From: a virus
Lineage: Duplodnaviria; Caudoviricetes
IMG/VR virus record: IMGVR_UViG_3300014204_000175
Span: 6,784 to 70,783 of that record
Length of the DNA: 64,000 nt
Reading direction: 5' to 3' (one strand)
Of the stretch, positions 4,701 to 23,993 are shown one piece after another. Below the pieces are notes generated by a model, which was not told the origin of the DNA, made no database searches, and worked only from the letters and a program-made list of their open reading frames with translations. A program made the translations under genes and the position numbers. Positions within the stretch are counted from its first letter, which is position 1. Each line of letters opens with the position of its first letter.

Positions 4701-6301
4701 ATATAGTCAGGGGCAAACTCGTCTAAAATCGCTTTCATTTTTAATTCAAGGCTGCTGCTAAACCCTTTTTGCGCCATTATTACATTAGGGTGTTTTTCGG
4801 GATGGTCCTTATAAAATTTCTTTAGTGACATTGTTTGTTTACTTCTTGAAACAGGATCCAGACTGGGGTTGTTGTTTGACATATATTCGACAACAGCTGC
4901 TCTCCATCGTTTAGAATTATGCGCATTGGAGGCGGCTTTCTTATGGACCTCTAAATTTTGAAACGGATGAGTCCCATCTGCTACCATTTCTCTCGTTTTT
5001 TTATTCGCATTTTTTGTTGTTTCAAATCTATCCCTCAGCCCTGATTCGTATTGGTCCAAATTGCTTTTTCTATTTTTTATGGAAACAATCTTTTTCCTAT
5101 CCTTTGTCCATTGCCCCTTGATATTTTCAAGGCTCCGGCAAGATTGAGAACAAAACTTGCTCACATGTGGAACCATTATATTACATTCTTCTCTACCGCA
5201 CTTGTGGCTTAAAAATGAAATCTTATCCCCATTTTTGATTGCTCCTGCGGGTTTCCAATCCCCATTGATCATAACCGGGTGGTCGATGGTCATAGTAACT
5301 TTGCAGGAATTGATATAGCCCTTGCCCTTAATGGAAATTCTAACCACTTCAGATACTTGTTTGGGAGTGAAAATTAAGTCTGTCACCTTTCTAAACCGCC
5401 CTTTGTGAGTCAATACCAAATCGCCAATTTGAATCTTTCTAATTGGCTTCCAACCTTTAGATGTATAAATTGGGATTTGTCCGTCTATAAAACAATTAAA
5501 ATGCACCGGCAAGCCTGGCCAACTCATCCCGGATAATGGAGTAAGATTCATATCGTATTTCTTACCATCATATGGTCTGCACCTACTACAAGTTTTCATG
5601 TCAAGAGTAGCAACAAATTCGATCCCATTTAAAACATCTGCGTTTGCCTTGTATGTTTCTTGTCGGACCGCATTGCTTACCTGCATAACCGATGTCCGTA
5701 CCAATGCTTCTGCTTCTCGTTTGGTCATAGACATAACGCCCGGAGTAGTTTTGGTTCCTCTGATTCTTGAGATCAAATCTCCGACTGATTCTCCTTGAAC
5801 CATGCCTACCTGTAGCGCTTGCGTGCCAGCGGCCATTGATGCTGCCATTTTCGCTTTAGTGCTTTCAGATTGTTTGCTCCACCACTCTCCAATCACATTG
5901 CCATCAATCAAAGTATTTTCAACTATTCCCTTGACGCCTTCTGGAGTCAAAGTAACATTGAAAATATCTGCGCCAACAGCTTTGTTGAGAGAAGAAACAA
6001 CATGATCTTTCTGAGTTCCAGCCATCTTGAGCAATTCGCCCTTATTGGTTTTGGCAATTTCTTTGTAAGTTGTATCAACTATGACAGAGATGTCTTCGTT
6101 CAATTTTTCAAGACGAGCGGCCTTCCACTTGGTCATGGTTGGTGCGGTTGGATCGTTCTTTGCGATCGCAGCAACAATTTCGCCTTGGGCATCTTTCAAA
6201 AGCTTCTGGATCTTATTATTCAACCCGACCGAATACTTATCTAGATTGATTTGGTCTTTTAAGGTTTGGTCTAGTATCTTTTCAGGAATGGTCTTATCCA
6301 T
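1742..6301 (-). CDS. MuF/SPP1 gp7-like head morphogenesis protein with intein, NUDIX domain and DUF3626-like C-terminal domain
   Basis: It follows portal. The MuF motif ATLDxKTCxxC...PxHFN-CRC is split by an intein. A Nudix box (KEVFEETG) lies at about 3350-3655. The C-terminal domain shows KNQF...S.G...RDGWE...ERPIYG...YG...RSTFTMGNS...YIEAQIYG. Confidence 0.85.
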   Translation of the reverse strand: MDKTIPEKILDQTLKDQINLDKYSVGLNNKIQKLLKDAQGEIVAAIAKNDPTAPTMTKWKAARLEKLNEDISVIVDTTYKEIAKTNKGELLKMAGTQKDHVVSSLNKAVGADIFNVTLTPEGVKGIVENTLIDGNVIGEWWSKQSESTKAKMAASMAAGTQALQVGMVQGESVGDLISRIRGTKTTPGVMSMTKREAEALVRTSVMQVSNAVRQETYKANADVLNGIEFVATLDMKTCSRCRPYDGKKYDMNLTPLSGMSWPGLPVHFNCFIDGQIPIYTSKGWKPIRKIQIGDLVLTHKGRFRKVTDLIFTPKQVSEVVRISIKGKGYINSCKVTMTIDHPVMINGDWKPAGAIKNGDKISFLSHKCGREECNIMVPHVSKFCSQSCRSLENIKGQWTKDRKKIVSIKNRKSNLDQYESGLRDRFETTKNANKKTREMVADGTHPFQNLEVHKKAASNAHNSKRWRAAVVEYMSNNNPSLDPVSRSKQTMSLKKFYKDHPEKHPNVIMAQKGFSSSLELKMKAILDEFAPDYIQQHPVLGFYVDFALPDLNIVIEVDGEYWHQDKEKDARRQQAIENQGWKVLRFCGDQINNNLEDIRQEIFRIASNHAGLYEFAYFEVEVLRRWRVSKPCTLYNFSVDEDESYIARGFVVHNCRCTSIPSVKSYEELSGPNSPLTSGQIKEMDANIPTGMRASMNGPVPGNLSYNDWLLLQSEDIQKEILGKGKWSLWQANKLDMVDLVNNDGMPLTLKELQATMGDILAAKEAVLESLIRQMALEAESAEALMSSISERLTEEQLKKALRIMDGEGGPSQLIADTKKTIEAQRVARAEARMLKELSDPNKIAVFEPRQKLPAGLYNPIKEVDLPTKVSVDEPVFMSAAGKRPSAGVIMIEQDGRVWIVSPKGEYGGYKNTFAKGSASGESALNLQRTAIKEVFEETGMQGEILGYLGDYEKTTSTTRYYIGRRIDGSPSMMGPESEAVKLVPQSELKGLMNVAVDQKVADDLIIAYNKAMKLGDGDFAKGVKELSADRVAGVRRTILESEFNWIKIDYPEAMREVDRLKMFEESVKTHVISKMEIWASAERTAERKAYELYSSLENKDPVRAYRAMVDAAKKINDDAAIGLGKLDYTERAALKSLKESGIVINSDSAYSILDKVERAAVSMRDEANKVIRLTDKQIKDIVDDNWLGPTTEKDYLANSLIARRNYIQDYFAEVDAVAKPTAPAELSVLQKDTLAVAKKRGVVTTNKTRAILNIEAGLASHKDVVKLSKIIADQMTVCCNIPMHDPNSGVYKSLMKEPVMKNQFVRGRSGSSQGSHAPYKSTIGRDGWERTLSGGILQENPVYKEMADHAYFETPAQIEAAYERPIYGFVLDSTNIDSANNYGQLTVVFKPEVRLRSTFTMGNSSGLKGQESTRHGSNASNFPLIKRMTTTSIDSIKPQNIKELLDGKKKLNQVGFGNGYDYIEAQIYGKTELTRDAQFLVWRRTENIPDFVQKFADRIGVKVYNAPQFKEMLQNGKI
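4340..5494 (-). mobile_element. Intein (385 aa) with a DUF559/Vsr-type endonuclease
   Basis: Begins CFIDGQIPIYTSKGWKPIRKIQIGDLVLTH (Cys270) and ends LYNFSVDEDESYIARGFVVHN (Asn654), followed by Cys+1. Internal motif YVDFALPDLNIVIEVDGEYWH...GWKVLRF. Confidence 0.92.
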
Positions 6302-6313
6302 GATGGATTCCTT

Positions 6314-7729
6314 CTAAAACGCATTTTGATCGCCAACGCCGGGATACTGAACGGCTTGTTGTGACGCCAGCAATTTTTCATCTTCAATCGTCCGATCTGC
6401 TGGTAATATTTCTCCTAGCTGCAACTGATACAAGAACGTGTCTTGGGAGATTTCTCCGGCCTGTCTGGCTTGCAACAAAGCGGTGATATCTTGTGCCGAG
6501 AGTTTAGACGATACGAACTCGCGATTCAACCTAACTTCTGCACTCTCTTCCACAGACAACCATTGCGCCAAATAATTCAACGCTTTGATTATTCCTTGCT
6601 CTGCACAATTTACAATCGTTGCTAGTGTCGCCGTATCGCCTGAGAAATGCATCCGAACAGTATCTGCCGCCTCTGCTGCTCGTTTCTGATCCTCAAGCAA
6701 ACGCGCCCCCATTACAGCCATTTGACGCTCCAATCTATCCAAAGCCTTCTCAATTGCGCCTAGCCCGGCACCAGTGAACTCAAGAAATCCACATTTCGCG
6801 TCAGGATTGTCCGAGACCCATGCCTTTTCTCCTCCGATATAAAATTCACCTGTACCAAATCCAGCGGCCCAAGGAGTTGGAATCGCACAAAGATGCAATC
6901 CATGATAGTAATCAACACCAACTTGCCAATGCTTAATATTCAAGTTGGCAAGATCCATCAATGGCGGATTGTCTGGGATAGGACTGTTGCTTATCGAGCC
7001 AAAAAAGACAAATGGAATTTCGGTCCAATTGGCGCCTCTGATTTTTGGGAATATGTCGTTTCCAACCTGAGACCAAACCTCCTTTTTCGAGATAACATTC
7101 TTTTCGTAAATTCTAACAACCAAAACACCGTCCTCTATCGCAAGAACGCGGACTTGATCAACAAAATTAACAACAAATGGATTCGCAGGATCAATTCGAG
7201 TCACTTGTTCCGCCAACGCCAACATCATCAATTTATTTTCGTCTCCTTGCTGCTGAAGGCGAAAATTCAGAATGGCTCCTGCTTCATACATGGCAAAATA
7301 AGGATTCGCGGTTTCTCCAACGATTGTTTGCTCTTCAGTAAGATCTGCTGTATCGACAAGTATGCCGTAATATCCATCAGAAATCACCTCTTGGACCACC
7401 ATCCTAATAACCTCTTGGATCGACTCTCCATTCAAAGTAATGAAAGGAAGCAGCGCGTCAACAATTGGCGCCACTTTTATCTGTGGTTCTTTTCTTACAA
7501 CGGCCCCGGTCAAGCCAACAACTGTACGACCAAAGGCGTTGAAAAAAGACCCTCGATTCAAATATGCCAGATATTCAGTTGGGGTCTGACCAGTCAATTT
7601 AGGAACATATAAAGTGGCCGCCGATTTCATGGCATCTTCGCCGTTCATAATGCCTTCAATTTTGGTCCATTGACCAACCCTTTGCTGATAGTATCCGCTC
7701 TTGGCGTTTGGCGTTAACTGCATTTTCAA
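6314..7729 (-). CDS. Portal protein (DUF4055 type)
   Basis: YVPKL..Q...EY..YLNR..FFNAFGRTV.GL.G pattern and IPFVFFG motif; 471 aa, upstream of MuF. Confidence 0.85.
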   Translation of the reverse strand: MKMQLTPNAKSGYYQQRVGQWTKIEGIMNGEDAMKSAATLYVPKLTGQTPTEYLAYLNRGSFFNAFGRTVVGLTGAVVRKEPQIKVAPIVDALLPFITLNGESIQEVIRMVVQEVISDGYYGILVDTADLTEEQTIVGETANPYFAMYEAGAILNFRLQQQGDENKLMMLALAEQVTRIDPANPFVVNFVDQVRVLAIEDGVLVVRIYEKNVISKKEVWSQVGNDIFPKIRGANWTEIPFVFFGSISNSPIPDNPPLMDLANLNIKHWQVGVDYYHGLHLCAIPTPWAAGFGTGEFYIGGEKAWVSDNPDAKCGFLEFTGAGLGAIEKALDRLERQMAVMGARLLEDQKRAAEAADTVRMHFSGDTATLATIVNCAEQGIIKALNYLAQWLSVEESAEVRLNREFVSSKLSAQDITALLQARQAGEISQDTFLYQLQLGEILPADRTIEDEKLLASQQAVQYPGVGDQNAF

Positions 7730-8733
7730 TTCCCTCCATTATCATTCCGGCGATTAATAAATTCTGCAGGCCCATTTAGCACCGCCAAGCGCTCTGCTAC
7801 CGATGGTTTCTTTCCGTCAAGCCTTGCTCTCGCCGCTATCTCAGCCGCTTTGAGCGAGGCGATATTTAGCTCAAATGTAACCTTATACGATAAATAATCT
7901 CCAGATAAAGCGGTATGGCCCAAATTTGGTTGTACGTGAGGGAACACAAAGATGCCAGCCAAATTCAATTCGTGAACATCAACATTGCCTGAGATATAAA
8001 TAATCTTGATGTTTGGATTGATTTCCTTGATGTGTTGTATCTTTATTAGTCCCGAAGGGCCAATCTGGGGACACTTGAGACCATACTCGGCAACAATTAT
8101 CGCATCTGCTGTCGCTAACCGCTTCTCCGAAGTGTCTGGCCACGTTTGACAGTCGATATCTGTATCCGCGAAGAAACATTCTAATTCATCTCGTACAAAC
8201 CCAGCAGAAGCCATCAAAATATATTTATCTCTCCAAACAGAAAGCCCGGATTCAAAACACGCCTTAATAATCTTCCATCCCATCGATCCTAATAAGCCGA
8301 TCTTGGCTTCATCCGTCGCAATGGGAACAATATGGGCTTTTTGTAACTCTTGAATATTAACATCTTCCAATCTGACTTGATCTGCTTTCATCATCAAAGC
8401 GACAACGGCGGTCTTTTTCATCTTACTAATGTCGTTTTGGGTAATTGGCCGAACAAACCCGGAATTGGTTATGATGTCTGCGTTGCATATAGTCTCGGCG
8501 TATCTATTGTTTGCAACTTCGATAGACGGAAAATCAGGCCGGAGGCCTCTCATCGCAAAAAGCTCCATTTGCCCATTATACATATAGACTTTTTTTGCTC
8601 CTGCCATTGCTGCTGCAATTCCGGTGTACAGATAATTTCCCGTAGCAAACTCCGTAAAAACGGTCAGTCCAGACAGGTCCAACTTGTATCTCTTGATCAA
8701 CTTTTGCAGATAAGCAATCTTATACGATTCCAT
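7726..8733 (-). CDS. Rossmann-like oxidoreductase-type protein of glycan clusters (WbmS-neighbour family)
   Basis: LDLSGLTVFTE.ATG...ADIITNSGFVRPI...VALM pattern of a family I recall next to polysaccharide deacetylases. Start moved to MESYKIAY. Confidence 0.5.
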   Translation of the reverse strand: MESYKIAYLQKLIKRYKLDLSGLTVFTEFATGNYLYTGIAAAMAGAKKVYMYNGQMELFAMRGLRPDFPSIEVANNRYAETICNADIITNSGFVRPITQNDISKMKKTAVVALMMKADQVRLEDVNIQELQKAHIVPIATDEAKIGLLGSMGWKIIKACFESGLSVWRDKYILMASAGFVRDELECFFADTDIDCQTWPDTSEKRLATADAIIVAEYGLKCPQIGPSGLIKIQHIKEINPNIKIIYISGNVDVHELNLAGIFVFPHVQPNLGHTALSGDYLSYKVTFELNIASLKAAEIAARARLDGKKPSVAERLAVLNGPAEFINRRNDNGGN

Positions 8734-9439
8734 TTGCAATCTCCGACAATGTACGATATTGCGACTGAACATTATGACTCAATAGCTTTTCAAGAAAATC
8801 GGCAACGCCAAATTCATGATCATTGACAAATAACCTGGCAAAGGTCTGCTTTATATCTTTCTGATCATGTTGCCTGAATTCCAAATAATCGCTCCATTTG
8901 GCGGTATTCAGGTAACAGTGAACCGGATGAAAACAAAGAACCTTCAATCCGTTTTCGTCCCATATCTGCCATTCCGGGCATGGCTTCGATAGCTCTGCAT
9001 CATCCGACCAGAAATAGGGCATGCGCCAAATAGATTCGCCAGACGTATATTTTGTCCTGAATGGATTGATCCCTTCCATGCCACCCAGATATACAGAACT
9101 ATCCACTTGCATGCCGTAAACGGCAAGCAGGCGCGCTACGCTGGCGGAATAAACCATGGCATGAGTACGCGCCGCCTTGGCATCCGGAACAATCCTCAAT
9201 AACCCTTTCATGACCTCTGCTGAATTCTTTCCTTGAGTGCTGCCTTGCAAAAAATTTGGATGAATACCGAGTTCAACGAATGGGCTCTTTTTAAGCTCAA
9301 GGAGAATCGGACTATCATGGGTGATGAACCATGTGCTTTTGATGTTTCTGATTGTCAGCCACTTCAAAAGGGCATCAGACATAAAATCTGGCACCCAGTC
9401 CTGATCTACTGTGATGGCTATTTCATTTAATCTATCCAT
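8720..9439 (-). CDS. Polysaccharide deacetylase, WbmS-like
   Basis: ITVDQDWVPD...TWFITH...ELGIHPNF...RTH...FHPVH NodB/CE4-type motifs. Confidence 0.8.
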   Translation of the reverse strand: MDRLNEIAITVDQDWVPDFMSDALLKWLTIRNIKSTWFITHDSPILLELKKSPFVELGIHPNFLQGSTQGKNSAEVMKGLLRIVPDAKAARTHAMVYSASVARLLAVYGMQVDSSVYLGGMEGINPFRTKYTSGESIWRMPYFWSDDAELSKPCPEWQIWDENGLKVLCFHPVHCYLNTAKWSDYLEFRQHDQKDIKQTFARLFVNDHEFGVADFLEKLLSHNVQSQYRTLSEIANGIV

Positions 9440-10338
9440 CCCGCCTCCCTCTTAAAATCAACCAATGCCGCATCATAATTATACTTCGGCACCCAGTTCA
9501 AATACTTGATCGATTTTTCAATATCAAAATTACTGCCTTTCGTCCTGACCTCCGAGATATCCGGCCTCATGATGATCTTGGAAGGATTATCAATGTGACA
9601 AAACACCCGACAGATGGCCTTGATCTCATCAAGAATCGTCAATGGCTTGCCCGATCCAATATTGTAATAACCAACCGGAGCATCTTCCGTCTCAACCGCC
9701 TTAATAAAAGCATCGCAGACATCTTTGATATAGATAAAATCTCTGGCCGTCGTTGGTGGATCGCCCCACACCTCAATCGGCTCGCCATTTCTAGCTTTGT
9801 TGATAAATTGATGGAATGGCGAATTGTATTTGGTGTCGCTGGAACCATATCCTCGAATATTGGCAAGGCGAAGAATATAGCCCTTGACTACTTTCATCCT
9901 GTTGTATGCCTCAACCATATCAGCGGCGGCAACTTTTGACTGGATGAATGGGATTGCATTATGCTCCCAGCTTGTTGTACCATACATCTGAGAACCATAC
10001 GGATAAATCTTTCCTTGGCCAATAAGGTTCGTGTCCGAATGGGTCATGGCATAAATCAATTTCGGGATCTTGTTTCTTCGACAAAACTCAAGAACATTAA
10101 GCGTTCCAAGAGTGTTGGCCTCGAAATATTCCTCCGGTGTATGGCCATTGATCATCAGCTTTGCCGCCAGATGAATAACAGCATCAAAATCAATTCCGTC
10201 AAAAGGCCTAAATCCATTCGGATGCGTAACATCAATATCGTAATGATTGGCAGCACAACAACCGATATCTTGGTCGCCCAACATTTCCGTCAAATACCTG
10301 CCAATGAATCCGTCCGCTCCTGTCACTAAAACTTTCAT
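9427..10338 (-). CDS. NAD-dependent epimerase/dehydratase
   Basis: VLVTGADGFIG, HLAA, NTLGT and RDFIYIKD extended-SDR motifs. Confidence 0.9.
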   Translation of the reverse strand: MKVLVTGADGFIGRYLTEMLGDQDIGCCAANHYDIDVTHPNGFRPFDGIDFDAVIHLAAKLMINGHTPEEYFEANTLGTLNVLEFCRRNKIPKLIYAMTHSDTNLIGQGKIYPYGSQMYGTTSWEHNAIPFIQSKVAAADMVEAYNRMKVVKGYILRLANIRGYGSSDTKYNSPFHQFINKARNGEPIEVWGDPPTTARDFIYIKDVCDAFIKAVETEDAPVGYYNIGSGKPLTILDEIKAICRVFCHIDNPSKIIMRPDISEVRTKGSNFDIEKSIKYLNWVPKYNYDAALVDFKREAGWID

Positions 10339-10350
10339 CTCCCGGCCTCC

Positions 10351-11394
10351 TTAATCCTCAATTTGTCGAAATGGAATCACATAAAAATATGGATATCCCT
10401 TTAGCAATTCCTGTTTGGTTGTCCCCTTTGGAATCTGCCTTAAAATCCTTGTATAGTATGTGTAGTTTTGACTCTCGCCGCCAAATCGCTGCTTGAAATG
10501 GAGCACCGATTCCATTCCCGGGATCGTCGTCCCTCCCCAATTCCAATACTTATACCCTGCTTTCGCCGCATCGGTCATAGCTTGATAAATCAAGCCATGC
10601 AACGGATCAAGATGACGATACTCGACCTTGATCGCCGGAGTCATGTAGTCGACTGTCTTGTTGAAATACTTTAAGAGTAGTGCTGCAACAGACTCTCCTC
10701 CGATAGTTGCGTTATAGAGCCGATAATTGTCGCCATATTTGAAAGCTTTAGATATGATATCAAATTCCATTTTTTTAACAGGAGCTTTCATTGCGAACAT
10801 ATTCACGCGATGCATTTCTGCAAGTTCTTTCATACATCCTTTATCTTCTCTACCGTTAGAAAATCTTAATGATTTGCGAATTTGGTTGCGAGTCTTTTGA
10901 TGAATCTTGGCCATCAACTGTTTATCAAAATCAGCACGATAAGCATAATCCGGCAAGGTAGTGACCGTTCCAACTCTCTTGTCAACTACATGATCATATT
11001 GATCAAAAAAGATGTCGTAAAGATCGACATCTTCAAATGGCCTTGAAATAAAGGTGGCTGTAATACATTTTGTCCATTCTGCCGCTTTCATCATAGCAGA
11101 TAAAAGATTGATTTTTACCTCGTCGTAATCTGCCAACACGCCAGGGTTTGATCCGAACCAAGGAAGAGAGTTCATAACTGGTCCAAACGGGCCATTGCAA
11201 ATAAACGACGGCAAAATACCAACTACCTGACCATATTCTTTTGCGACAAAATAATACGGGATAGATCCTTTTGGCAGCAGCCTTAACAAAAAATTCCTGA
11301 ATTGGTATGACGAATTGAACAATGATCTTTCATGGGTTCCGGCATAATCATCCCATGCTTGAAGATCGTCTTCATTCAACAACTCTACAATCAT
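10351..11394 (-). CDS. FemAB-like GNAT-fold transferase
   Basis: AWDDY...SLPWFG...KTRNQIRKS...YWNWGGT...HFKQRFGG, the double-GNAT FemABX/Acetyltransf_6 pattern. Confidence 0.75.
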   Translation of the reverse strand: MIVELLNEDDLQAWDDYAGTHERSLFNSSYQFRNFLLRLLPKGSIPYYFVAKEYGQVVGILPSFICNGPFGPVMNSLPWFGSNPGVLADYDEVKINLLSAMMKAAEWTKCITATFISRPFEDVDLYDIFFDQYDHVVDKRVGTVTTLPDYAYRADFDKQLMAKIHQKTRNQIRKSLRFSNGREDKGCMKELAEMHRVNMFAMKAPVKKMEFDIISKAFKYGDNYRLYNATIGGESVAALLLKYFNKTVDYMTPAIKVEYRHLDPLHGLIYQAMTDAAKAGYKYWNWGGTTIPGMESVLHFKQRFGGESQNYTYYTRILRQIPKGTTKQELLKGYPYFYVIPFRQIED

Positions 11395-11436
11395 TTTGAT
11401 CTCCTTGAGATATTGTATAAAGTATAATCAAAGAAT

Positions 11437-12399
11437 TTAAAAGTTATTTTTCCCTTGATCCAGATACCAACGGATCGTTTTTTGCAGCCCTTCAACCATG
11501 CCAATCTTGTGAGTGAATCCGAGTACATCTTTGGCTTTCAACCCGTTACAGAGATGGCGTCGGACATCGCCTATGCGTTCTGGCCGAACTGCTATTGCCT
11601 GCCAAGTCTCTTCTCCGGACATCTTCAGATACAAATCTCTGATCTCTTCAACCAGCCAGCCGATTTGGATATCATGGCCAGAGCCAATGTTGATAATCTC
11701 GCCTTTTAAATCTGGCCGCTGGCCCATCATAACTGCTGCTCGTGCTGTGTCCTCGACATAAATGTAATCACGGGTCTGCGTCCCTGTTCCACAAATAATT
11801 GGCGATTCGTTTTTCATCAATCTCGCAATAGTCAGAGGGATCACGCCTGCATATGATTCTGCATTTTGCTTTGGCCCGTAATTGTTAAATGGCCGCAATA
11901 TTGAGATGTCGGATCCAAACGTCCTGACATAAGACATGCAGATCAGATCGCCAGCTGCTTTACTTGCCGCATATGGTGTCGAAGCTTCGAGGGGATGATC
12001 TTCGCACATTGGGGCATACCGTGCCGACCCATATACTTCTGATGATGAAAAATGAATCAGTCGAAAAGATTTCATTTCTCGTTGCAATTCACAAAGATTT
12101 GTAATCATAGCAACGTTGCAGTCGATGTTAGCAACGGGATCTTCAAGGGAATGCGGCAATGGGAGCACGGCCAAATTGTAAATCAAATCCGGTTTTACAT
12201 CTTGTAACGTCTCTTCCATATCAAAGAAATTACAAGCATTCACTTTACGCAGATCAATCCCTTTTGGTAGGTTTTCTTCTTTGCCCAGAAACAGATTGTC
12301 AACGACTGTTACAATTGCTCTCTCTTTAATAAAGGCATCAACGAGATGCGAACCGATGAATCCAGCTCCCCCCACGACAAGAACTTTTGTGTCTTTCAT
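11437..12399 (-). CDS. NDP-sugar epimerase / 4,6-dehydratase
   Basis: GGAGFIGSHLV, SSSEVYG, PYAASK, RPFNNYGP and RDYIYVED motifs. Start moved to MKDTKVLV (RBS AGGGAG). Confidence 0.92.
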   Translation of the reverse strand: MKDTKVLVVGGAGFIGSHLVDAFIKERAIVTVVDNLFLGKEENLPKGIDLRKVNACNFFDMEETLQDVKPDLIYNLAVLPLPHSLEDPVANIDCNVAMITNLCELQREMKSFRLIHFSSSEVYGSARYAPMCEDHPLEASTPYAASKAAGDLICMSYVRTFGSDISILRPFNNYGPKQNAESYAGVIPLTIARLMKNESPIICGTGTQTRDYIYVEDTARAAVMMGQRPDLKGEIINIGSGHDIQIGWLVEEIRDLYLKMSGEETWQAIAVRPERIGDVRRHLCNGLKAKDVLGFTHKIGMVEGLQKTIRWYLDQGKNNF

Positions 12400-12677
12400 C
12401 GATACTCCCTTCCCTGTTCGTCGGCAAAATATGCAAAAGCACCTTTTCCGACTAAGACTGCATCCTCGTAAAAGCACCGATCAAGAGGATCTTCAAGAAG
12501 CGCTCCTACCGTTATCAGTTCGGTATATTCAACAATTCTCCCGTCTGTCAATCTCGCAAATGTCCGATCGCGGTTCGCATCCCGCAAATGCGACCATTGT
12601 TTTTTTGAATACCAAAGATCACCCGTTAAGGATGCCTCTGTTACTTTCTCAAGATAATCAATTGGTGCTCTGCCCAT
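12396..12677 (-). CDS. Hypothetical protein
   Basis: 93 aa, translationally coupled to both neighbours. Confidence 0.6.
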   Translation of the reverse strand: MGRAPIDYLEKVTEASLTGDLWYSKKQWSHLRDANRDRTFARLTDGRIVEYTELITVGALLEDPLDRCFYEDAVLVGKGAFAYFADEQGREYR

Positions 12678-13339
12678 TATTCTTTCTCCTCTCCTAAACT
12701 CCCAAAAATAGCCGGTATTTTATCCTTCATTTCATTCATCAGCGGAATCATGATTTCTGACATCTGCGGATGTGGCTTGCCAGTTAATCCTAACGCTCGT
12801 TGTTCGAATACCAATCTCCACTCACGGAAATTTGCTGTCATGACAATTTCAGTTTTAAGAGAATTCGGCAGGACTGTTCGAGCTTGCTGTGGGGACCAAT
12901 TTTTACCAAGAAGATCAAGGTAAGACATCTCCGCTTCTTGCATGGCTTGAAACCATCTAAAATCAGAAGTATATGGGTCGGCTATTTCGGCAGGATCACA
13001 TTCTTCCCAATCGTATTCTCCTTCCAAGATATTTACCCACGGTGGAATAATGAACGTAACACCACCACTATAATTGCAATATCTCGTTGATTCTTGGCTA
13101 TAAACAGCCATCCGATGTCTTACAAGCTCATGGGTAAACCCGCGATCAACGATAAACTTAACAGTCATGGACCCATGCTCGATGATTGTTAAATGCTTGG
13201 CTTTGATTTTACTTTTCAAGAACGCAGCAGGGGCGCCTTTCGATTCCGACTTATAGCATGTTCTTCCGGCTTTCTCCATCAACAACAAATCGGCTCCATT
13301 GATTGCTAAAATCTCATAGCTTGGCTTTATTAAGATCAT
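12677..13339 (-). CDS. thyX: FAD-dependent thymidylate synthase
   Basis: Signature HELVRHRMAVYSQESTRY, plus ARTVLPN and ANFREW...HPQM. Confidence 0.95.
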   Translation of the reverse strand: MILIKPSYEILAINGADLLLMEKAGRTCYKSESKGAPAAFLKSKIKAKHLTIIEHGSMTVKFIVDRGFTHELVRHRMAVYSQESTRYCNYSGGVTFIIPPWVNILEGEYDWEECDPAEIADPYTSDFRWFQAMQEAEMSYLDLLGKNWSPQQARTVLPNSLKTEIVMTANFREWRLVFEQRALGLTGKPHPQMSEIMIPLMNEMKDKIPAIFGSLGEEKE

Positions 13340-14421
13340 ATCTCTCCTCCTTTATCCCATTCTTTTTGCAAGTCCAACCCGTACCAGACTGGCAACGAAA
13401 TGCAATTCTCTGCTAAGTACGCAGAATTTGGCAACAACCGATTCATATAGAAAGCCGGATGAGTATGACAAGCATAAGTTCCAACGCCCGTCTCAAATCC
13501 TTTCTCTCTCATGTAATCTACAACTGCCTGTCGTTGACCAACTGCACATCTACAAACATATGCTTGGAGGATGTCTTCTTTTGCATGCCATAAAGGTGCC
13601 GTTATTCGCTCCGAGAGAAAAGAGTCGGTGGCAATAATCTTCCCCCAAATGACCGCTTGTTCTCGCCTTGCCCTTATCGTCTTTTCAATTCGAGACAACT
13701 GAACCAGACCGATGGCGGCTGCGATATCAGACATCTTGAAATTAAAACCGAATTGACTAAATTGAACCGGCCCAACCCTCCCGAAAGTTCTTTCAATGCC
13801 AAAGTTGGAAGCTCGTTTCATCCTATTTGCCAGCACCGCACTATTTGTTGCGATCAATCCTCCCTCTCCGGTCGTTATGCCTTTTCTGGCATGCAGAGAA
13901 AAGCAACCGATGCCGCCAATAGTGCCAAGCATCCGTCCTTCGTAAGAAGCCCCCAAGGCGCAAGCGGCGTCCTCAATGACTTTGAGATCATATTGTTTGG
14001 CAATCTCCATGATTTTTATCATTGGCGCCGAACGACCAAACAAATGGACAGGCACGATAGCCTTTGTACGGCTTGTAATGGCCCTCTCAATTTTATCGGC
14101 ATCGATATTATACGAATACATGTTAACGTCAACAAGCACCGGCGTAGCGCCTGATGCAAGGATTGCTAATGGAGTCGCTGGAAAAGTAAAATCTGGACAG
14201 ATCACTTCGTTCCCTGGACCAACGCCAAGAGCTTTCAAGGCCAAGAAAAGAGCAGATGTGCAATTGGTTACGCTGATGACATAGTTACAATTCAAGTATT
14301 TTGCAACGGCCTTTTCAAACGCTTCGCACATTGGCCCTTGAGCAACCCACCCAGATTGCAAAACTTTTCTGACTGCTTCAACTTCTTCTTCATCAAAATA
14401 TGGCTTATTTAATGGGATCAT
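13336..14421 (-). CDS. DegT/DnrJ/EryC1/StrS PLP-dependent sugar aminotransferase
   Basis: SGWVAQGP, PDFTFPAT, PVHLFG, IEDAACALG, FSLHARKGITTGEGG and NFKMSDIAAAIG motifs. Confidence 0.95.
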   Translation of the reverse strand: MIPLNKPYFDEEEVEAVRKVLQSGWVAQGPMCEAFEKAVAKYLNCNYVISVTNCTSALFLALKALGVGPGNEVICPDFTFPATPLAILASGATPVLVDVNMYSYNIDADKIERAITSRTKAIVPVHLFGRSAPMIKIMEIAKQYDLKVIEDAACALGASYEGRMLGTIGGIGCFSLHARKGITTGEGGLIATNSAVLANRMKRASNFGIERTFGRVGPVQFSQFGFNFKMSDIAAAIGLVQLSRIEKTIRARREQAVIWGKIIATDSFLSERITAPLWHAKEDILQAYVCRCAVGQRQAVVDYMREKGFETGVGTYACHTHPAFYMNRLLPNSAYLAENCISLPVWYGLDLQKEWDKGGEI

Positions 14422-14953
14422 ATGTCCTCGCCTCTCTTGTTATTGACAAATCACCCAACAAATCCATAGGCGGAAGTTTCAAAGATTCAACTAATGGCTG
14501 CGAGGCTGGATTGCCAATCACCACACAACCCGCATTAACATCCTTGGTAACAACTGAACCAGCACCAATCATAGCGCCTTCTCCAATTATGATGCCTGGT
14601 AAGATAATGCTGCCTGCTCCAATAACTGCACCTTTCTTTATGAGGGTTGGCGACCAATCCTTTTTGTCTCCGGGCGGATGTTTATCGTTGGTAAATGTAA
14701 CTCTTGGCCCGATGAAACAATCATCTTCTATCGTCACTCCTGATGGAATAAAACAAAAGGCGGCAATTCTGACATTGTCGCCGATAATTACTCCCGGACC
14801 AATCTCCACGAATGCTCCAATGTTACAATTCTCGCCAATCTTAAAATCCCCGTATAAATTGACAAATTCAGGGCGCCATATTATAGTGTTTTCCCCGATA
14901 TCCCATGAATCATAAACATCAAAAATCTCCTTTTTCTTTTGCCACATTTTCAA
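14405..14953 (-). CDS. Hexapeptide-repeat N-acyltransferase (WbpD/WxcM-like)
   Basis: Left-handed beta-helix repeats, FIGPRVTFTND and GAGSVVTKDV...GNPA. Confidence 0.9.
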   Translation of the reverse strand: MKMWQKKKEIFDVYDSWDIGENTIIWRPEFVNLYGDFKIGENCNIGAFVEIGPGVIIGDNVRIAAFCFIPSGVTIEDDCFIGPRVTFTNDKHPPGDKKDWSPTLIKKGAVIGAGSIILPGIIIGEGAMIGAGSVVTKDVNAGCVVIGNPASQPLVESLKLPPMDLLGDLSITREARTYDPIK

Positions 14954-14970
14954 TCCTTCTTTAAATTAAT

Positions 14971-15044
14971 AAAAAATAGCTGGTTGCCGATCGCCAGTCG
15001 GTGGTGTTCCTTTGGGACCGACCGACTAATCAGAACAACCAGCT
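14971..15044 (-). terminator. Long imperfect hairpin followed by a U-tract
   Basis: AGCTGGTTG/CAACCAGCT at 14978-14986/15036-15044 encloses AGTCGGT/ACCGACT. An A-tract at 14971-14976 gives the U-tract on the minus strand. Confidence 0.55.
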
Positions 15045-15269
15045 AAGCACTAGGCAACAAGGCCGACCGTACTCAAATCCAATAATATGATTGATTCATT
15101 ATTTCATTTTGTCCCTCCTTTTCTTTATTTGCATCTTCTTTTGGCACATATGCCGGGCGCCGAAGCTTTAAACTTTAAGCCAAAATATTCAAAGTGCATT
15201 TGAAAAAGGCTTTCCTCTGATCATTGCGTAATCACCTCCTTTTTTTGATAAATAAAACCTTTCAACTTT

Positions 15270-15298
15270 ATTATACCCCCTTTTTCAAAAATCATCAT
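15270..15298 (-). promoter_or_regulatory. Putative promoter ATGATG-17-TATAAT
   Basis: Minus strand ATGATGATTTTTGAAAAAGGGGGTATAAT. Confidence 0.5.
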
Positions 15299-16274
15299 AG
15301 ATAAATTTAGGATTTTTACAGCCATCCAGATACTCATCTCGATTCATGATGAGATCAAAGAGGTACAGATACCGTTTCAATATTGTTTTTGTTGAGAAAT
15401 TACGCCGGGCAAACGTTTTTGTTTCCTTCCCCCATCTTTGCAATTCTGCATCGCTCAGGGCGGCCAACATCTTGATCTTTTGCTTCAGGTTCTCTTTACA
15501 AATCAAAACAGTTGGATTGTCGGAGTAGTGGCTCATAATCCATGGACCCAGACAACTCATTACCACATGGCCCAACCACATCGATTCAACCCCGGATATG
15601 CCCCACGCCCCATGCAGGCTTGTGAAGGTGACTTGGCATTCCTGTTTTCGTTCCAGACATTCCTTATTTGACAACTGGCTGAGAATCTCCAATTCAACAA
15701 GGACGCCTTCGGCTTGCAACTCGCCAATAACCTGGTACAAATAATCATACCCTTTCATTGGATTGCCTGCTGATCCAGCGCAGATCTTTAGCGGCCCATT
15801 GCCGCGGCGCAACGCAACAGGAACGTCATCCATATCCCCATACTTGGTGAAATAAGACCCAAGATGATAAAAGCTATTCAAGAGATGGCCGGTAATGGAC
15901 CAATCGGTGCCAGTAATTGCCAAGATGCCGGTGTTCTCATGGAATCGCTGGAGGGTTTGCCAATTATCTCTAAGCTCCGATCCGTAATACTTAATGCAGC
16001 AGTTGTTTTTGTTGAGTAAGCCATTGCTATCCCAATCTGTTCCGGCCCAACTGAAGATTCCCCGACCAAAATGAAAAAAGTCGCATTGCTTGACCCAGTC
16101 TGTCGCCTCCTTCTCTGCCCCCGGATCTGAAAGCAAGATATCCTTGTCGTAGGCGAAGGAATCATCATATGCAATGATGCAACGTGCCTTATGTTGCGTG
16201 TATTTATTGATTGCCCTCATCAACGCTGTTGGCTGACCAGCGATATTGAAGTCCGAAATGATACTAATATTCAT
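15285..16274 (-). CDS. Glycosyltransferase (GT-B, GT4-like)
   Basis: C-terminal pattern NPMKGYD...ECLERK...WGISGVESMWLGHVV resembles the GT4 EAMAxG motif; located in a sugar cluster. Confidence 0.7.
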   Translation of the reverse strand: MNISIISDFNIAGQPTALMRAINKYTQHKARCIIAYDDSFAYDKDILLSDPGAEKEATDWVKQCDFFHFGRGIFSWAGTDWDSNGLLNKNNCCIKYYGSELRDNWQTLQRFHENTGILAITGTDWSITGHLLNSFYHLGSYFTKYGDMDDVPVALRRGNGPLKICAGSAGNPMKGYDYLYQVIGELQAEGVLVELEILSQLSNKECLERKQECQVTFTSLHGAWGISGVESMWLGHVVMSCLGPWIMSHYSDNPTVLICKENLKQKIKMLAALSDAELQRWGKETKTFARRNFSTKTILKRYLYLFDLIMNRDEYLDGCKNPKFIYDDF

Positions 16275-16468
16275 GAAGCTCCTCCTTCAACCAAAACGTT
16301 ATTTGCCGTTTTTATTTCCACCATTGCCTTCATCGGATCATCTTTCATCGGAGTAAAAACAACCAGGCCTTTGCAAGTCATAGTCCTTACTTCCTTTTGA
16401 CCACTAATACAATGGCTAAAACTGGCATGCAACCTGGCCAATTCCCAGTCGGCAGGTTCTTTTCCCAT
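16271..16468 (-). CDS. Hypothetical protein
   Basis: 65 aa ORF filling the gap between coupled genes. Confidence 0.4.
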   Translation of the reverse strand: MGKEPADWELARLHASFSHCISGQKEVRTMTCKGLVVFTPMKDDPMKAMVEIKTANNVLVEGGAS

Positions 16469-16469
16469 G

Positions 16470-17216
16470 CTATATTTCCTCCTCCATCTTTGCTAAATCG
16501 TCCTGCATCTTAATTGTCAGCTCAAAGAATGGATGCATCATTTGTTCATTGAGAATTTCCATATTTTGAAGAACGCAATGGCCACCAATCTTGCCGATAG
16601 GAGGATCCAAAACGTACCTCTGCAAATCAGGGAGGCCCATATCAAAATTCAATTTATTGTAATCCCGATCATAATCCTTGACAAATTTGTAATCAAGATC
16701 AATTGCTTTCGCCGCATGTCCAGACCATCGGGCCAATTCAACATTGACTCCATAGATCGCCAATGACCTGAGCTTGAGAAACTCTGTATGAGTCGAAGAT
16801 GAAAACCACTTGATATGCTCAATACCGCATTGCGAAAAAAAAGCGCGAGCAAGTTCATTCTCGCCACCTATATACCGAACATGCTCTTGTAGATAATCGC
16901 TCATCTTATCATGTCTCCCTTCAACTGGCGAATGAACCGTATCTTCCGATATCTGATCGCAAGTACCAATCGGAACGGTTGAAAAGACAACTATCACTTC
17001 GGGGTGAAACCTTTCTTGAAGCGCCTTTACATCTTCGACAAATGTTTTAGAGTATGGAAACGCAATTGCTAATACGTCGCAATATACATCGCAATAACAC
17101 GGATTCTCAATATCAAATCCGGCTGCCGGATCATAAAGCATCCAATCGTGATACTGCCTCCACGCTCCAAATATCCCTTTGCCAACTTCTCCATATCCGG
17201 CAAGAATTACTTTCAT
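16470..17216 (-). CDS. UDP-glucose/GDP-mannose dehydrogenase family protein (short form)
   Basis: GYGEVGK Rossmann motif, FSTVPIGT, HSPVEG and catalytic GGHCV. Start moved to MKVILAG. Confidence 0.8.
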   Translation of the reverse strand: MKVILAGYGEVGKGIFGAWRQYHDWMLYDPAAGFDIENPCYCDVYCDVLAIAFPYSKTFVEDVKALQERFHPEVIVVFSTVPIGTCDQISEDTVHSPVEGRHDKMSDYLQEHVRYIGGENELARAFFSQCGIEHIKWFSSSTHTEFLKLRSLAIYGVNVELARWSGHAAKAIDLDYKFVKDYDRDYNKLNFDMGLPDLQRYVLDPPIGKIGGHCVLQNMEILNEQMMHPFFELTIKMQDDLAKMEEEI

Positions 17217-17767
17217 TTTCCTGCCTCCGGCAAATCGGTCCATTCAACCAATTTATCGATAGCGGCCAGTTCTTGAGAATTCAAATAATCTCCGAGTGCG
17301 GACAACTTCAATTCGATCCTCTGAAAAGGAATTGAAACTTCCGCATCTTTCAATTCTTTGAATTCCTGATCAAAAGAATCTTGCGATCCTTCGCCTTGAA
17401 ATGAATATGCTTGTTGTGGGGCACCATCTTCTCCAAATACCGGGACAGGACATTGAATCGTTTGCCCAAATTCGTCTTTCTGCAGAATCATCCTGGTCCT
17501 TGTCGTCATCAACGGCTTTCCGTCTTCTCCTTTGTCGCAATAACGTTCCGCAGTCTCAATACGCGCTTTTTCATAATCCTTGACCAATTTTTTGAATTCA
17601 TCGAAGAAACGCCCAATCCAATACCTGGCAACGCCGCCCAAAGAGATCTCTCTCGGTGCCGTAATCAGCTTCTGAAATCCTTGAGATGAACTAATTTCAA
17701 TCAAATCCTCATTTGTCAATAATACGCACTTCTCTTTGATCTTAATTACATTACTCTTTGTTTTCAT
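17213..17767 (-). CDS. Hypothetical protein
   Basis: 184 aa, in operon with an RBS. Confidence 0.65.
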   Translation of the reverse strand: MKTKSNVIKIKEKCVLLTNEDLIEISSSQGFQKLITAPREISLGGVARYWIGRFFDEFKKLVKDYEKARIETAERYCDKGEDGKPLMTTRTRMILQKDEFGQTIQCPVPVFGEDGAPQQAYSFQGEGSQDSFDQEFKELKDAEVSIPFQRIELKLSALGDYLNSQELAAIDKLVEWTDLPEAGK

Positions 17768-17939
17768 CCTTTTCTCCTTTTGTTTTATTGATAATTATAT
17801 TCATGTTGCCATTATGACTTACAACTCTTACCCGATACGCCTTATCAAATAAAATATCTCCTTGTATGGATATATCTGGGCGAATACAAACATATCCCGT
17901 ATGTGCCGATACGTCTTCGCTCGTTATTTCCTTTTCCAT
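17751..17939 (-). CDS. Hypothetical protein
   Basis: 62 aa with GGAGG RBS; TATAAT at 17961-17966. Confidence 0.55.
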   Translation of the reverse strand: MEKEITSEDVSAHTGYVCIRPDISIQGDILFDKAYRVRVVSHNGNMNIIINKTKGEKDENKE

Positions 17940-17981
17940 TCTTTACCTCCCGATGCATCTATTATATACCTTGATCAATAA

Positions 17982-18302
17982 TCAATCGTAGTTAATTTTT
18001 TTGACTTCATCTCGATTAGGTGCGTCCGGCCTAAATACCAATTCCCAGCCATGTTCCCCATGTTTTACTCTTCCTTCTGGAAGCTCCAAGACCTCTCCGG
18101 TCTCACATATTAATCTCAAAGGACTATTGGGGCCAACAGTAAAAACATACCAGTGATTAACCATCACTTCTGTATGCCAACTGCCATTTGATTTAATATT
18201 CCCCGATTCGGGCCAATCTTCAGGGTGAGGACTATCAGAGGAATTGACAACACCAATTACTGCGCTACATTTCCAAAGGTCACCTGGTTGTGGAGTTGTC
18301 AT
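17982..18302 (-). CDS. Hypothetical protein
   Basis: Start moved to MTTPQPG (ATGA overlap with the upstream stop). Confidence 0.55.
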   Translation of the reverse strand: MTTPQPGDLWKCSAVIGVVNSSDSPHPEDWPESGNIKSNGSWHTEVMVNHWYVFTVGPNSPLRLICETGEVLELPEGRVKHGEHGWELVFRPDAPNRDEVKKINYD

Positions 18303-18535
18303 ATCTTCACCGCTATTGGATTTCCCGTTGGTACAAAGCCGCCCTCCCATTCAGGGGCTACCTCTGTAATAGATGCCTGGCAGGCTATTGCAGATTGGGG
18401 AGTAAAATAAATCTTATCTCCAAAATGGATAACAAACCCTTCTCCTGGAGGGAGGATTACCGCTCTGAACTCATAAATCTTCCCTATAGTCATATACGGC
18501 TCTATGGTTTTATATATATCATCAACTAGGGACAT
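18299..18535 (-). CDS. Hypothetical protein
   Basis: 78 aa with AGGAGG RBS. Confidence 0.6.
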   Translation of the reverse strand: MSLVDDIYKTIEPYMTIGKIYEFRAVILPPGEGFVIHFGDKIYFTPQSAIACQASITEVAPEWEGGFVPTGNPIAVKI

Positions 18536-18959
18536 CCTGGCCTCCTTTAAATACTAAAACTTCAGGTTCAACGAGCTTGTATTCTCCTGCACCTATGCGA
18601 GGAGATGACTTTGATTTCTTCAGATCAATAGGGGGAGCAGAGAGCTTCTCCTTAGTATCCGACATAATCGTGACATTTGATATTTCGGCCCATGCGTCTG
18701 ATTCTTTAGAAACAAATCGCAGAATCTCTATGGTGTTTCCGAAAGGTGCAGACATTATAATTCTTTCTTGAGTAGACTCTTCTGAAGGATAAAATCCCAC
18801 TTTGAATTGCTGTGTAATTGGCCAGTGTGATTTCATGCTTAACCAACTCCATTGACCGTTACCTATGCAATATATAGAATCTGTGCGCTTGCCAATTGTA
18901 AAGTCCATCCTGAGAAACATATTCTGGTTTGATTTGGCCCACGCCCCTACGTGTATCAT
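18522..18959 (-). CDS. Hypothetical protein
   Basis: 145 aa, coupled ORF. Confidence 0.6.
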   Translation of the reverse strand: MIHVGAWAKSNQNMFLRMDFTIGKRTDSIYCIGNGQWSWLSMKSHWPITQQFKVGFYPSEESTQERIIMSAPFGNTIEILRFVSKESDAWAEISNVTIMSDTKEKLSAPPIDLKKSKSSPRIGAGEYKLVEPEVLVFKGGQDVPS

Positions 18960-19192: not shown

Positions 19193-19195
19193 TTG

Positions 19196-21866: not shown

Positions 21867-21867
21867 T

Positions 21868-22413: not shown

Positions 22414-22541
22414 CTATTTTAATTTCCATTGCCCTTCATGCACTCACCGCTGCGGACTGATATGAATGTGAATCTTATATTTTCAACGCCGCCAATTATC
22501 TCTTTAGAATTAGTCATACCACACATTGAGGGGCAATGGGA

Positions 22542-23979: not shown

Positions 23980-23993
23980 TGCCTATCTCCTAA

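Follow-up and report, generated by a model that had tools for sequence, protein, structure and literature searches.

The virus record IMGVR_UViG_3300014204_000175 (Duplodnaviria; Caudoviricetes) carries a block of sugar-enzyme genes directly upstream of its portal gene, and we consider it probable that this block supplies the sugar, as the variable half, for a self-contained system with which the phage O-glycosylates its own virion proteins inside the host cytoplasm. A second glycosyltransferase (GT), which combines a GT2 domain with a tetratricopeptide-repeat (TPR) region, is encoded next to the major capsid protein (MCP). This head-module GT would most likely prime Ser/Thr residues on a structural protein, and the GT-B-fold glycosyltransferase of the block would transfer the sugar product of the island. 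A virion protein is the most likely target, ahead of DNA or a host structure, because the closest bacterial relatives of both transferases adjoin flagellin genes. The window analysed here comprises 64,000 nucleotides (positions 6,784 to 70,783) of a single virus contig of 70,783 bp, with a CheckV completeness of ~77%. Every gene in the window lies on the minus strand. Coordinates and the supporting matches are collected in Table 1.

The two glycosyltransferases

The head genes extend past the start of the window into the first part of the contig (locus L073, contig positions 1–7300). The 408-residue head-module GT is encoded there, just outside the window, between the genes for the MCP and a 155-residue protein and the gene for the head–tail adaptor. 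Its N-terminal GT-A (GT2) domain was identified with PF00535 (E = 9.2e-19), and the C-terminal half is helical and TPR-like, with weak TPR matches. The DxD motif, D85-A-D87-E88, is invariant in seven homologues. An AlphaFold2 (AF2) model with a predicted local distance difference test score (pLDDT) of 85.8 was matched to SunS/ThuS (PDB entries 7msn, 7msp and 7msk) over ~385–391 columns with E values of 5e-19 to 2e-17; the next fold class appeared only at 8.6e-9, so that SunS/ThuS lead by ten orders of magnitude. The gene is present in five of the five large relatives, one of which has a different island, and it lies behind the capsid genes every time. In relatives, two tandem duplications were seen in this region (L029:9402-11806 and L030:15710-16763), one giving two copies of the head-module GT2+TPR gene and the other two copies of the gene for the 155-residue protein.

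Searches with the 408-residue GT using tblastn returned yolJ of SP-beta, which we take to be sunS, and a 637-residue open reading frame (ORF) of Listeria (33% identity). On the Listeria fragment a flagellin gene lies ~1.2 kb downstream, and the surrounding ORFs are presumably motA, motB and cheV, judged from their order and length. With gene order read from these neighbouring ORFs, the 637-residue ORF appears GmaR-like in both length and setting. GmaR, an O-GlcNAc transferase, adds GlcNAc to flagellin through its N-terminal domain, and a role in holding the substrate has been proposed for its TPR domain (PMC9638930). The records with the 637-residue GmaR-like ORF and a flagellin gene (OR847070.1, locus L085; also OR848573.1 and OR848533.1) are deposited as 'Listeria phage'; by ORF order and length they are probably host DNA from the chromosomal motA–motB–gmaR–cheV–flaA region. 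For the SunS/GmaR-type head-module GT of the phage, transfer to Ser, Thr or Cys of a peptide or protein is the putative activity, a reading taken from context, with homologues directly upstream of flagellin genes in L076 and L084.

The 329-residue glycosyltransferase of the sugar block had no Pfam, NCBIfam or PHROG match and was assigned from its AF2 model (pLDDT 91.3), in which two Rossmann-like domains form a GT-B fold. Foldseek placed PimA first among PDB entries (2gej; E = 7.6e-10), followed by BshA (3mbo) and PglA, all of them GT4 enzymes; GT4 enzymes headed the 477 PDB matches with E <= 0.001. Of the GT4 EX7E motif only the second Glu is evident (E230, invariant, within WGISGVE). The family comprises 87 homologues, mainly on phage-sized contigs, some of them with an N-terminal TPR fusion of ~198 residues. 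A fold search of BFVD matched only uncharacterised phage and giant-virus glycosyltransferases.

Homologues at bacterial flagellin loci

Read from gene order, bacterial contexts are the strongest evidence available that would link the two TRANSFERASES (the GT-B enzyme and the SunS-like GT) with one another and with a substrate that is a protein. On the metagenome contig L076 a single strand encodes a TPR–GT-B protein, a short-chain dehydrogenase/reductase (SDR), a DegT aminotransferase, another SDR, three more enzymes and a 582-residue SunS-like GT that is 37% identical to the phage enzyme; flagellin, FliS-like and FliD-like genes follow, and a tblastn comparison with annotated flagellins confirmed the first of these. 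A metagenome-assembled genome (MAG) of Desulfobacteraceae encodes an 869-residue protein with two SunS-like GT domains that ends 288 bp before a flagellin gene (L084). In the same genome a GT-B homologue is followed by a gene resembling that of the 346-residue SDR of the phage block (SDR346) and a DegT gene, with a hexapeptide-like domain upstream and a homologue of the 348-residue protein of the block (29% identity) downstream (L081). The stretches L084:1466-5781 and L076:963-12464 are uncharacterised glycosylation islands in their own right, in which SunS-like GTs, one of them a tandem double GT, immediately precede Ser/Thr-rich flagellins.

In Desulfamplus magnetovallimortis (NZ_LT828564.1; L083:6728-10987) the two transferases are fused in a single 1419-residue protein, with the SunS-like GT at residues 7–322 (38% identity, E = 3e-60) and the GT-B domain at the C-terminus (50% identity); SDR and DegT genes come after it. 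This fusion may be a two-step protein glycosyltransferase. Because of the fusion and the repeated co-clustering in bacteria, we infer that both phage transferases act in one pathway on protein.

Conservation of the block within the phage lineage

Relatives were collected as 17 IMG/VR loci through the GT-B family and 21 through the portal protein. Both sets belong to one phage lineage, with portal proteins 43–70% identical. The core of the block, consisting of the UDP-sugar 6-dehydrogenase (UGDH)-like, GT-B, hexapeptide, DegT, orf93, SDR346, FemAB-like and SDR303 genes (SDR303 being a second, 303-residue SDR), occurs in ~20 uncultured IMG/VR relatives at 35–67% identity. A synteny check was proposed in an earlier reading of the sequence made without database searches (the sequence-only reading). 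The core lies between TerL and the portal gene wherever portal identity reaches 49% or more and enough DNA upstream of the portal is available; one such member, L022, lacks SDR303. The identities of the core proteins follow that of the portal, with Spearman rho values of 0.83 for GT-B, 0.78 for DegT, 0.72 for SDR346 and 0.64 for both the FemAB-like protein and SDR303. The block is old in the lineage and is not a recent, decaying host capture. Recent capture of a host lipopolysaccharide (LPS) locus with degraded frames, which the sequence-only reading had named as the finding that would count against it, was ruled out by the intact frames, the normal composition (the GC content of the island is similar to that of the remaining contig) and the co-divergence with the portal. 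The scale of the block, which had been supposed to be unusual for a phage of this type, is not so within the lineage, where the block is the rule.

More distant relatives (L033, L030 and L034; 43–48% portal identity) have other sugar genes directly upstream of the portal gene. The island of L033 encodes an SDR, a radical-SAM enzyme, a GT11 and a fusion of GT2 with an FkbM methyltransferase; that of L030 a GFO/IDH/MocA oxidoreductase, a hexapeptide transferase, a GT2 and a UDP-GlcNAc 2-epimerase; and that of L034 a PIG-L deacetylase and an ATP-grasp enzyme. The TerL–portal interval is a hot spot for sugar genes. The 93-residue protein orf93 is 43–58% identical in 11 relatives, occurs also in L030, where the island is otherwise different, and is relocated in L013, L014 and L017; it travels with the island. 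The WbmS-like gene and the gene for the 348-residue protein are accessory and present in a subset of relatives, mostly with the former directly upstream of the latter; the exceptions are L020, with a weak WbmS-like match (28%) and no gene for the 348-residue protein, and L022, with that gene and no WbmS-like gene.

The flavin-dependent thymidylate synthase gene thyX was considered as a core component of the island and rejected, since most relatives are without it. It was found in this contig and one other only (L004/L025), is missing from the large relatives G001–G004, and has the look of a gene of nucleotide metabolism that was inserted at the hot spot. Searched as nucleotides against the phage collection, the 9.5-kb block had no match, and neither had the GT-B protein by tblastn. 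Contigs with the GT-B gene of this phage family (L077–L080 and L082) have been binned into MAGs that bear the names Omnitrophota, Eubacteriales, Paceibacterota, Sulfuricurvum and Colwellbacteria; the check was made for L078, a stretch identical to L004. The names look like the result of mis-binning and are uninformative on the host.

Enzymes of the block and a proposed sugar pathway

All nine enzymes that the sequence-only reading had named as running into portal and MuF are present, intact and on the minus strand, in tightly packed frames. Its gene list was correct as far as it went, and missed ThyX, the conserved 93-residue ORF and the small ORFs. The identities are given here at the level of family or fold. 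Direct PDB sequence searches with the 257-, 329- and 348-residue proteins gave chance-level matches only. The absence of export machinery was confirmed: the cluster proteins are soluble, with a transmembrane-like segment in none of them, no flippase or polymerase was found, and no multi-pass membrane protein is encoded on the contig. This soluble pathway with its glycosyltransferase, in a block that has the orientation of the head genes and adjoins them, agrees with the earlier proposal that the phage makes its own decorated amino sugar for a cytoplasmic target.

Since no nucleotidyltransferase is encoded in the island, the pathway must begin from a host NDP-sugar, and a host UDP-hexose would be the starting compound. 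It would possibly be oxidized at C6 by the UGDH-like protein, which the sequence-only reading had called an NDP-sugar dehydrogenase. The assignment holds in that the protein is UGDH-like, and needs amending in that it is truncated. Its 257 residues comprise the NAD-binding domain and the central domain with an invariant GGHC motif; the C-terminal UDP-binding domain is absent. No Pfam family was matched at threshold, and the nearest Atlas clusters are viral proteins of 220–273 residues that carry PF00984. A profile of 14 homologues gave weak matches (E = 0.009–0.02) to UDP-Glc and UDP-ManNAc dehydrogenases in the PDB, with Cys223 of the GGHC motif aligned on their catalytic Cys. The gene is kept in 13 relatives, every time directly upstream of the GT-B gene. 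Short UGDH-like proteins of this kind (220–273 residues, in several mostly viral Atlas clusters) keep the catalytic Cys and lack the UDP-binding domain; they are a widespread, unstudied viral enzyme form.

A 4-keto sugar would then be formed by SDR346, either by 4,6-dehydration or by decarboxylation of a uronic acid (UDP-GlcA). SDR346 has invariant SSSE-VYG and YxxxK motifs, and where the first motif has its Glu, the five solved epimerases that match best have Ala or Ser. Both dTDP-glucose and GDP-mannose 4,6-dehydratases and the UXS/ArnA decarboxylases carry Glu at this position. It is because of this invariant Glu that SDR346 is taken as the likely 4-keto source, and it is the one feature from which that role is drawn. 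Dehydratases and UXS scored 108–124 bits. The names of homologues are generic and contradictory (epimerase or GDP-mannose dehydratase), and the nearest cellular relatives are methanogen proteins at ~50% identity.

Amination at C4 would follow, catalysed by the DegT enzyme, which by sequence is most like C4 aminotransferases. Its best NCBIfam matches were PseC, ArnB and LegC, each under the equivalog cut-off, and the best PDB matches were perosamine synthase (4e-59) and ArnB (1e-56), with WbpE at only 3.5e-42. The logic of WbpA/E/D-type synthesis invoked in the sequence-only reading was not upheld: a WbpB-type GFO/IDH/MocA 3-dehydrogenase is absent from the island, the DegT enzyme matches best with C4 enzymes and the dehydrogenase is truncated.

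The new amine would be N-acylated by the hexapeptide enzyme and/or aminoacylated by the FemAB-like enzyme in an aminoacyl-tRNA-dependent reaction. The hexapeptide enzyme matched the NeuD/PglB/VioB family TIGR03570 (2.7e-22) under the cut-off of that family. The FemAB-like protein has a Fem/GNAT-like fold according to PF13480 (6e-07; 30.2 bits, cut-off 22) and PF02388 (3.4e-06; 26.6 bits, cut-off 24); its full-length match to TIGR03019 (9.3e-16; 57.8 bits against a cut-off of 260) does not make it an equivalog. Use of aminoacyl-tRNA is proposed for it by similarity, including a weak PDB match to the aminoacyl-tRNA-dependent peptide synthase 9wqw (E = 0.01). Further tailoring in some relatives would involve the WbmS-like enzyme, the 348-residue protein and SDR303. 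The 348-residue protein had no Pfam, PHROG or NCBIfam match and sits in uncharacterised bacterial families of the Atlas. In SDR303 the catalytic Tyr is replaced by Phe (F131xxxK135), accompanied by a THSD motif, and both features are invariant in nine relatives; judged by these motifs it would be either a non-redox SDR or the user of an unusual mechanism.

The order of these steps and the identity of the sugar are our proposals. If the UGDH-like protein takes part, the route may be Arn-like and lead to a 4-aminopentose; if it does not, the product may be a 4-amino-4,6-dideoxyhexose. A pathway to pseudaminic or legionaminic acid was considered and rejected, as no NeuB/PseI-type synthase or CMP-transferase was present in the Pfam and NCBIfam results for the island.

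Acceptor and alternative explanations

The Ser/Thr-dense surface loop of the MCP is the best candidate acceptor, followed by the 155-residue protein and the tail tube. The densest Ser/Thr 15-mer among the contig ORFs (10 of 15 residues) is MCP residues 148–162, a loop of variable sequence that is nevertheless Ser/Thr/Ala-rich across relatives; this is a lead only. The neighbouring 155-residue protein ranks second in Ser/Thr density among real coding sequence. The MCP C-termini are often, though not always, V-T-A or V-S-A, and the strongest Ser/Thr patch is internal. A complex prediction for the SunS-like GT with the 155-residue protein scored 0.00 and carries no weight either way. The sequence-only reading had offered capsid proteins or DNA as targets. 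The first of these was strengthened by the SunS/GmaR-type GT beside the capsid gene and by the flagellin-linked or fused bacterial homologues, and the second was weakened, with no ThyA-family match above cut-off, no ThyX and no radical-SAM module in complete relatives that carry the island.

Several observations tell against virion glycosylation as set out here. SDR346 is globally most similar to 4-epimerases, the 257-residue dehydrogenase-like protein is without its substrate-binding domain and SDR303 is without the catalytic Tyr. The GT-B fold does not discriminate between targets, since the RB69 and DLP3 DNA arabinosyltransferases share its top PDB matches, 2gej and 3mbo (PMC13326640). The flagellin role of the bacterial homologues is derived from adjacency, GmaR excepted; the connection between the island and the capsid-side GT would likewise follow from context and from the bacterial fusions. 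The phage is uncultured and known from genes alone, and about 77% of its genome is represented by the contig.

Modification of the host instead of the particle is unlikely. The product could be an undecaprenyl-linked O-antigen or capsule unit exported by host Wzx/Wzy, or a sugar on host flagellin, pilin or S-layer, and would exclude competing phages or keep progeny from adhering to debris. GT4 enzymes such as PimA and PglA commonly use lipid-linked acceptors at the inner membrane face, and for that reason the missing flippase is compatible with such a role. The flagellin linkage of the bacterial homologues points the same way, as the phage could target flagellin too, and DegT/SDR auxiliary genes are common in phages. 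Opposed to this, the genes sit within the head-assembly block in every relative, the SunS-like GT lies between capsid and adaptor genes in all relatives examined and a membrane-anchoring segment is absent. Late co-expression, if real, would come too late for surface remodelling before lysis, and no integrase was noticed among the ORFs scanned, which were part of the ORFs only.

Somewhat less probable still is hypermodification of DNA, in which the GT-B enzyme would put the phage-made amino sugar on a modified base and so block host nucleases, as in T4, RB69 and DLP3. The top PDB matches of the GT-B enzyme (PimA 2gej and BshA 3mbo) are the same as for RB69 gp3 and the DLP3 gp76/77 arabinosyltransferases (PMC13326640), and the HY126 phage glycosyltransferase and T4 AGT rank 18 and 31 among the matches of the GT-B model. 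HY126 is listed among phages with arabinosylated 5hodC (PMC13326640). This copy of the island includes ThyX, the contig has a radical-SAM/DUF2156 module at 41.6–49.4 kb, and some GT clusters elsewhere lie close to genes for terminase and structural proteins (Pyle et al., bioRxiv 10.1101/2023.12.21.572611). Known DNA glycosylation requires a ThyA homologue or 5mYOX to produce the acceptor, usually clustered with the GT (Pyle et al., bioRxiv 10.1101/2023.12.21.572611), yet no ThyA-family match (PF00303) above cut-off was obtained in this contig (G000) or in four island-carrying relatives (three 100% complete and one 94%), with a positive control. A search of G000–G004 for Tet_JBP (PF12851) gave no match and has little weight, as its control was silent as well; Pfam scans of 30 further ORFs found replication and recombination genes and no base-hydroxylating enzyme. 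ThyX occurs nowhere beyond this contig and L004/L025, two complete island-carrying relatives are without the radical-SAM module, and the island is placed in the packaging and head block, away from replication and nucleotide genes. The bacterial homologues of both transferases adjoin flagellin genes, the GT-B family has TPR fusions and the partner in the head module is a peptide/protein-type GT.

Unrelated functions for the two loci, namely a glycocin-like small-molecule or peptide glycoconjugate or diverted host sugar metabolism with a separate capsid-side GT2+TPR, are improbable: the best structural matches, SunS/ThuS, do glycosylate secreted antimicrobial peptides, the homologue yolJ is on the SP-beta prophage and several island proteins have no assignable chemistry, but no precursor peptide, transporter-peptidase or immunity gene was seen, the contig encodes no large membrane protein, the fusion and co-clustering of both transferases in bacteria favour one pathway and the fixed head-module position would be hard to explain.

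Within the preferred reading, glycosylation of the phage's own virion, a more specific form is put forward tentatively. The lineage may have a serotype-like particle locus, in which a fixed flagellin-type priming GT beside the capsid gene is combined with a pathway-swapping, hypervariable sugar island in the TerL–portal interval; the sugar would here be an aminoacylated 4-amino sugar made with the FemAB-like tRNA-dependent enzyme and the domain-truncated UGDH.

Gene order and neighbouring features

In the direction of transcription, TerS and TerL are followed by ~20 small ORFs, the 257-residue Rossmann protein and the rest of the island, the portal gene and the MuF gene. The island occupies the interval from the packaging genes to the portal, which the terminase genes bound on the upstream side, and the start of the portal gene is overlapped by the last gene of the sugar block. 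After MuF the order is scaffold, MCP, 155-residue protein, 408-residue GT, an 83-residue protein, adaptor, head closure, neck, tail terminator and tail tube. PHROG matches across the set of scaffold, MCP, 155-residue protein and adaptor were phrog_206 (6e-35), phrog_212 (1.8e-78), phrog_13126 (8e-30) and phrog_477 (4.5e-37).

A scan of positions 6000–25500 found 51 promoter-like sites, which is not above the 43 +/- 7 of shuffled sequences, and no clear terminator on the coding strand inside the island. Scans of the window for Rfam families and for tRNAs were negative. Between the GT-B and hexapeptide genes lie 331 bp (14954–15284) without an ORF of at least 60 residues and without an RNA family match; the spacing of these two genes in relatives ranges from 5 to ~585 bp. 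An HD-domain protein and a weak, below-cut-off match to a YfbR-like 5'-deoxynucleotidase flank the terminase genes (23994–24491 and 27235–27822). MuF genes for ~2,300–2,700 residues were seen in relatives (L019:11477-19324, L025:11684-19741 and L028:10806-17777), and the C-terminal cargo region of MuF appears highly expandable in the lineage.

Table 1. Features of the packaging, sugar and head region in transcription order. Coordinates are window positions, or positions in locus L073 where so marked.
Feature	Coordinates	Strand	Basis and remarks
TerS	26503-27108	-	PF03592 2.1e-22
TerL	25022-26506	-	PF03237 1.4e-05; 61-76% identical in relatives
Truncated UDP-sugar 6-dehydrogenase-like protein, 257 aa	16470-17243	-	likely start Met10, 17216
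GT-B (GT4-like) glycosyltransferase, 329 aa	15285-16274	-	AF2 and Foldseek
Left-handed beta-helix (hexapeptide) N-acyltransferase	14405-14953	-	PF00132 2.4e-31
DegT pyridoxal phosphate-dependent NDP-keto-sugar aminotransferase	13336-14421	-	PF01041 2.9e-100
ThyX flavin-dependent thymidylate synthase	12677-13339	-	PF02511 7.4e-38; RHRX7SXR signature
93-aa protein (orf93)	12396-12677	-	no family match
Extended SDR, 346 aa (SDR346)	11437-12477	-	PF01370 9e-57, PF16363 4e-52; likely 320 aa from Met27
FemAB/GNAT-like transferase	10351-11394	-	PF13480, PF02388, TIGR03019
Second extended SDR, 303 aa (SDR303)	9427-10338	-	PF01370 3.5e-36; best PDB match 3m2p 7e-18
WbmS-like putative sugar de-N-acetylase	8720-9439	-	PF22537 2.8e-46; PDB 3hft (WbmS) 6.4e-26
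348-aa protein, 2-hydroxyacid-dehydrogenase-like fold	7726-8772	-	Atlas TM 0.58
Portal protein	6314-7729	-	PF13264 7e-36; tblastn to annotated portals
MuF-like minor head protein	1742-6301	-	intein, Nudix and DUF3626 domains
Head scaffolding protein	517-1287	-	PHROG match
Major capsid protein (MCP)	L073:6191-7126	-	phrog_212 1.8e-78
155-aa protein	L073:5677-6144	-	next to MCP
SunS-like GT2+TPR, 408 aa	L073:4437-5663	-	PF00535 9e-19
Head-tail adaptor	L073:3638-4162	-	PHROG match

Comparison with known systems and implications

To our knowledge, virion glycosylation has been shown only in a few mycobacteriophages and, with virus-made sugars, in giant viruses, and we know of no phage that makes its own virion sugar. 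In the mycobacteriophages studied, transferases are reportedly encoded by the phage and sugar nucleotides are drawn from the host. Mimivirus, Megavirus and chlorovirus encode a dehydratase, an aminotransferase and an N-acetyltransferase for a rare 4-amino sugar on their own particle; these eukaryotic viruses differ from the present phage in having unrelated capsids. A tailed phage with this amino-sugar arrangement was not found in the literature searched.

In mycobacteriophages, glycans are present on capsid and tail-tube subunits (Freeman 2023, as cited in PMC12619734). Soluble phage GTs are reportedly encoded with or near the structural genes in Che8, Corndog and Myrna, the subunits are reported to be glycosylated in the cytoplasm, and the glycan is reported to shield the particle. 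The arrangement is alike here, with one GT gene between MCP and adaptor and one in the TerL–portal interval. Unlike in the mycobacteriophages, a block of 8–11 genes would make and tailor a rare amino sugar here, other GT families are involved (SunS/GmaR-like GT2+TPR and GT4-like GT-B) and the proposed acceptor is an internal Ser/Thr loop instead of a C-terminal tail, in a system known from its genes.

Flagellin O-glycosylation by GmaR of Listeria (GT2+TPR; PMC9638930) and FlmG of Caulobacter (TPR and GT domain; PMC7591256) is similar in that a self-assembling subunit is modified in the cytoplasm. TPR modules are proposed to hold the substrate in these systems, and rare-sugar genes are clustered with the transferase, as here. 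They differ in that the phage has no flagellin, so that its substrate would be another protein, and no nonulosonic-acid synthase or CMP-transferase. With SunS/ThuS (7msn, 7msp and 7msk; PMC6405829) the head-module GT shares the full-length fold, the DxD motif and the peptide/protein acceptor class; it differs in the low identity (18–23%), in the lack of glycocin precursor, transporter and immunity genes and in its capsid-module setting. Phage DNA glycosylation (T4 AGT/BGT; RB69/DLP3 arabinosyl-5hoC; PMC13326640) also uses a GT-B enzyme with the same best PDB matches and genes for sugar-nucleotide supply, but those genes cluster with a ThyA homologue or 5mYOX, kinases and dCTPase, and ThyA homologues were sought and not found here.

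As regards the sugar itself, the ArnA/ArnB and perosamine/viosamine pathways share the 4-keto intermediate, C4 transamination and N-acylation with the proposed pathway, and the Arn route would fit a UGDH-like protein and an SDR with a Ser-Glu motif. The present block departs from them in that its matches fall under the equivalog cut-offs, the UGDH-like protein is truncated, there is no formyltransferase, and a FemAB-like protein and an atypical SDR are added. A GFO/IDH/MocA-containing set, as in the WbpA/B/E/D/I synthesis of 2,3-diacetamido-uronic acid, occurs in the relative L030 and not here.

If virion glycosylation is the function, a lineage of 70–100 kb phages from groundwater-type metagenomes would make its own rare sugar, attach it with flagellin-type GTs and swap whole pathways at one site. 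A first function would then be given to three families: the GT-B proteins encoded mainly on phage-sized contigs, the short UGDH-like proteins common in viruses and the transferases of Desulfobacteraceae flagellin loci. Particle glycans would be a general, evolvable trait of phages that bears on adsorption, stability, predation and immune recognition. Should the locus be serotype-like, the glycan diversity of the capsid would be under diversifying selection like that of bacterial O-antigens and flagellar glycans.

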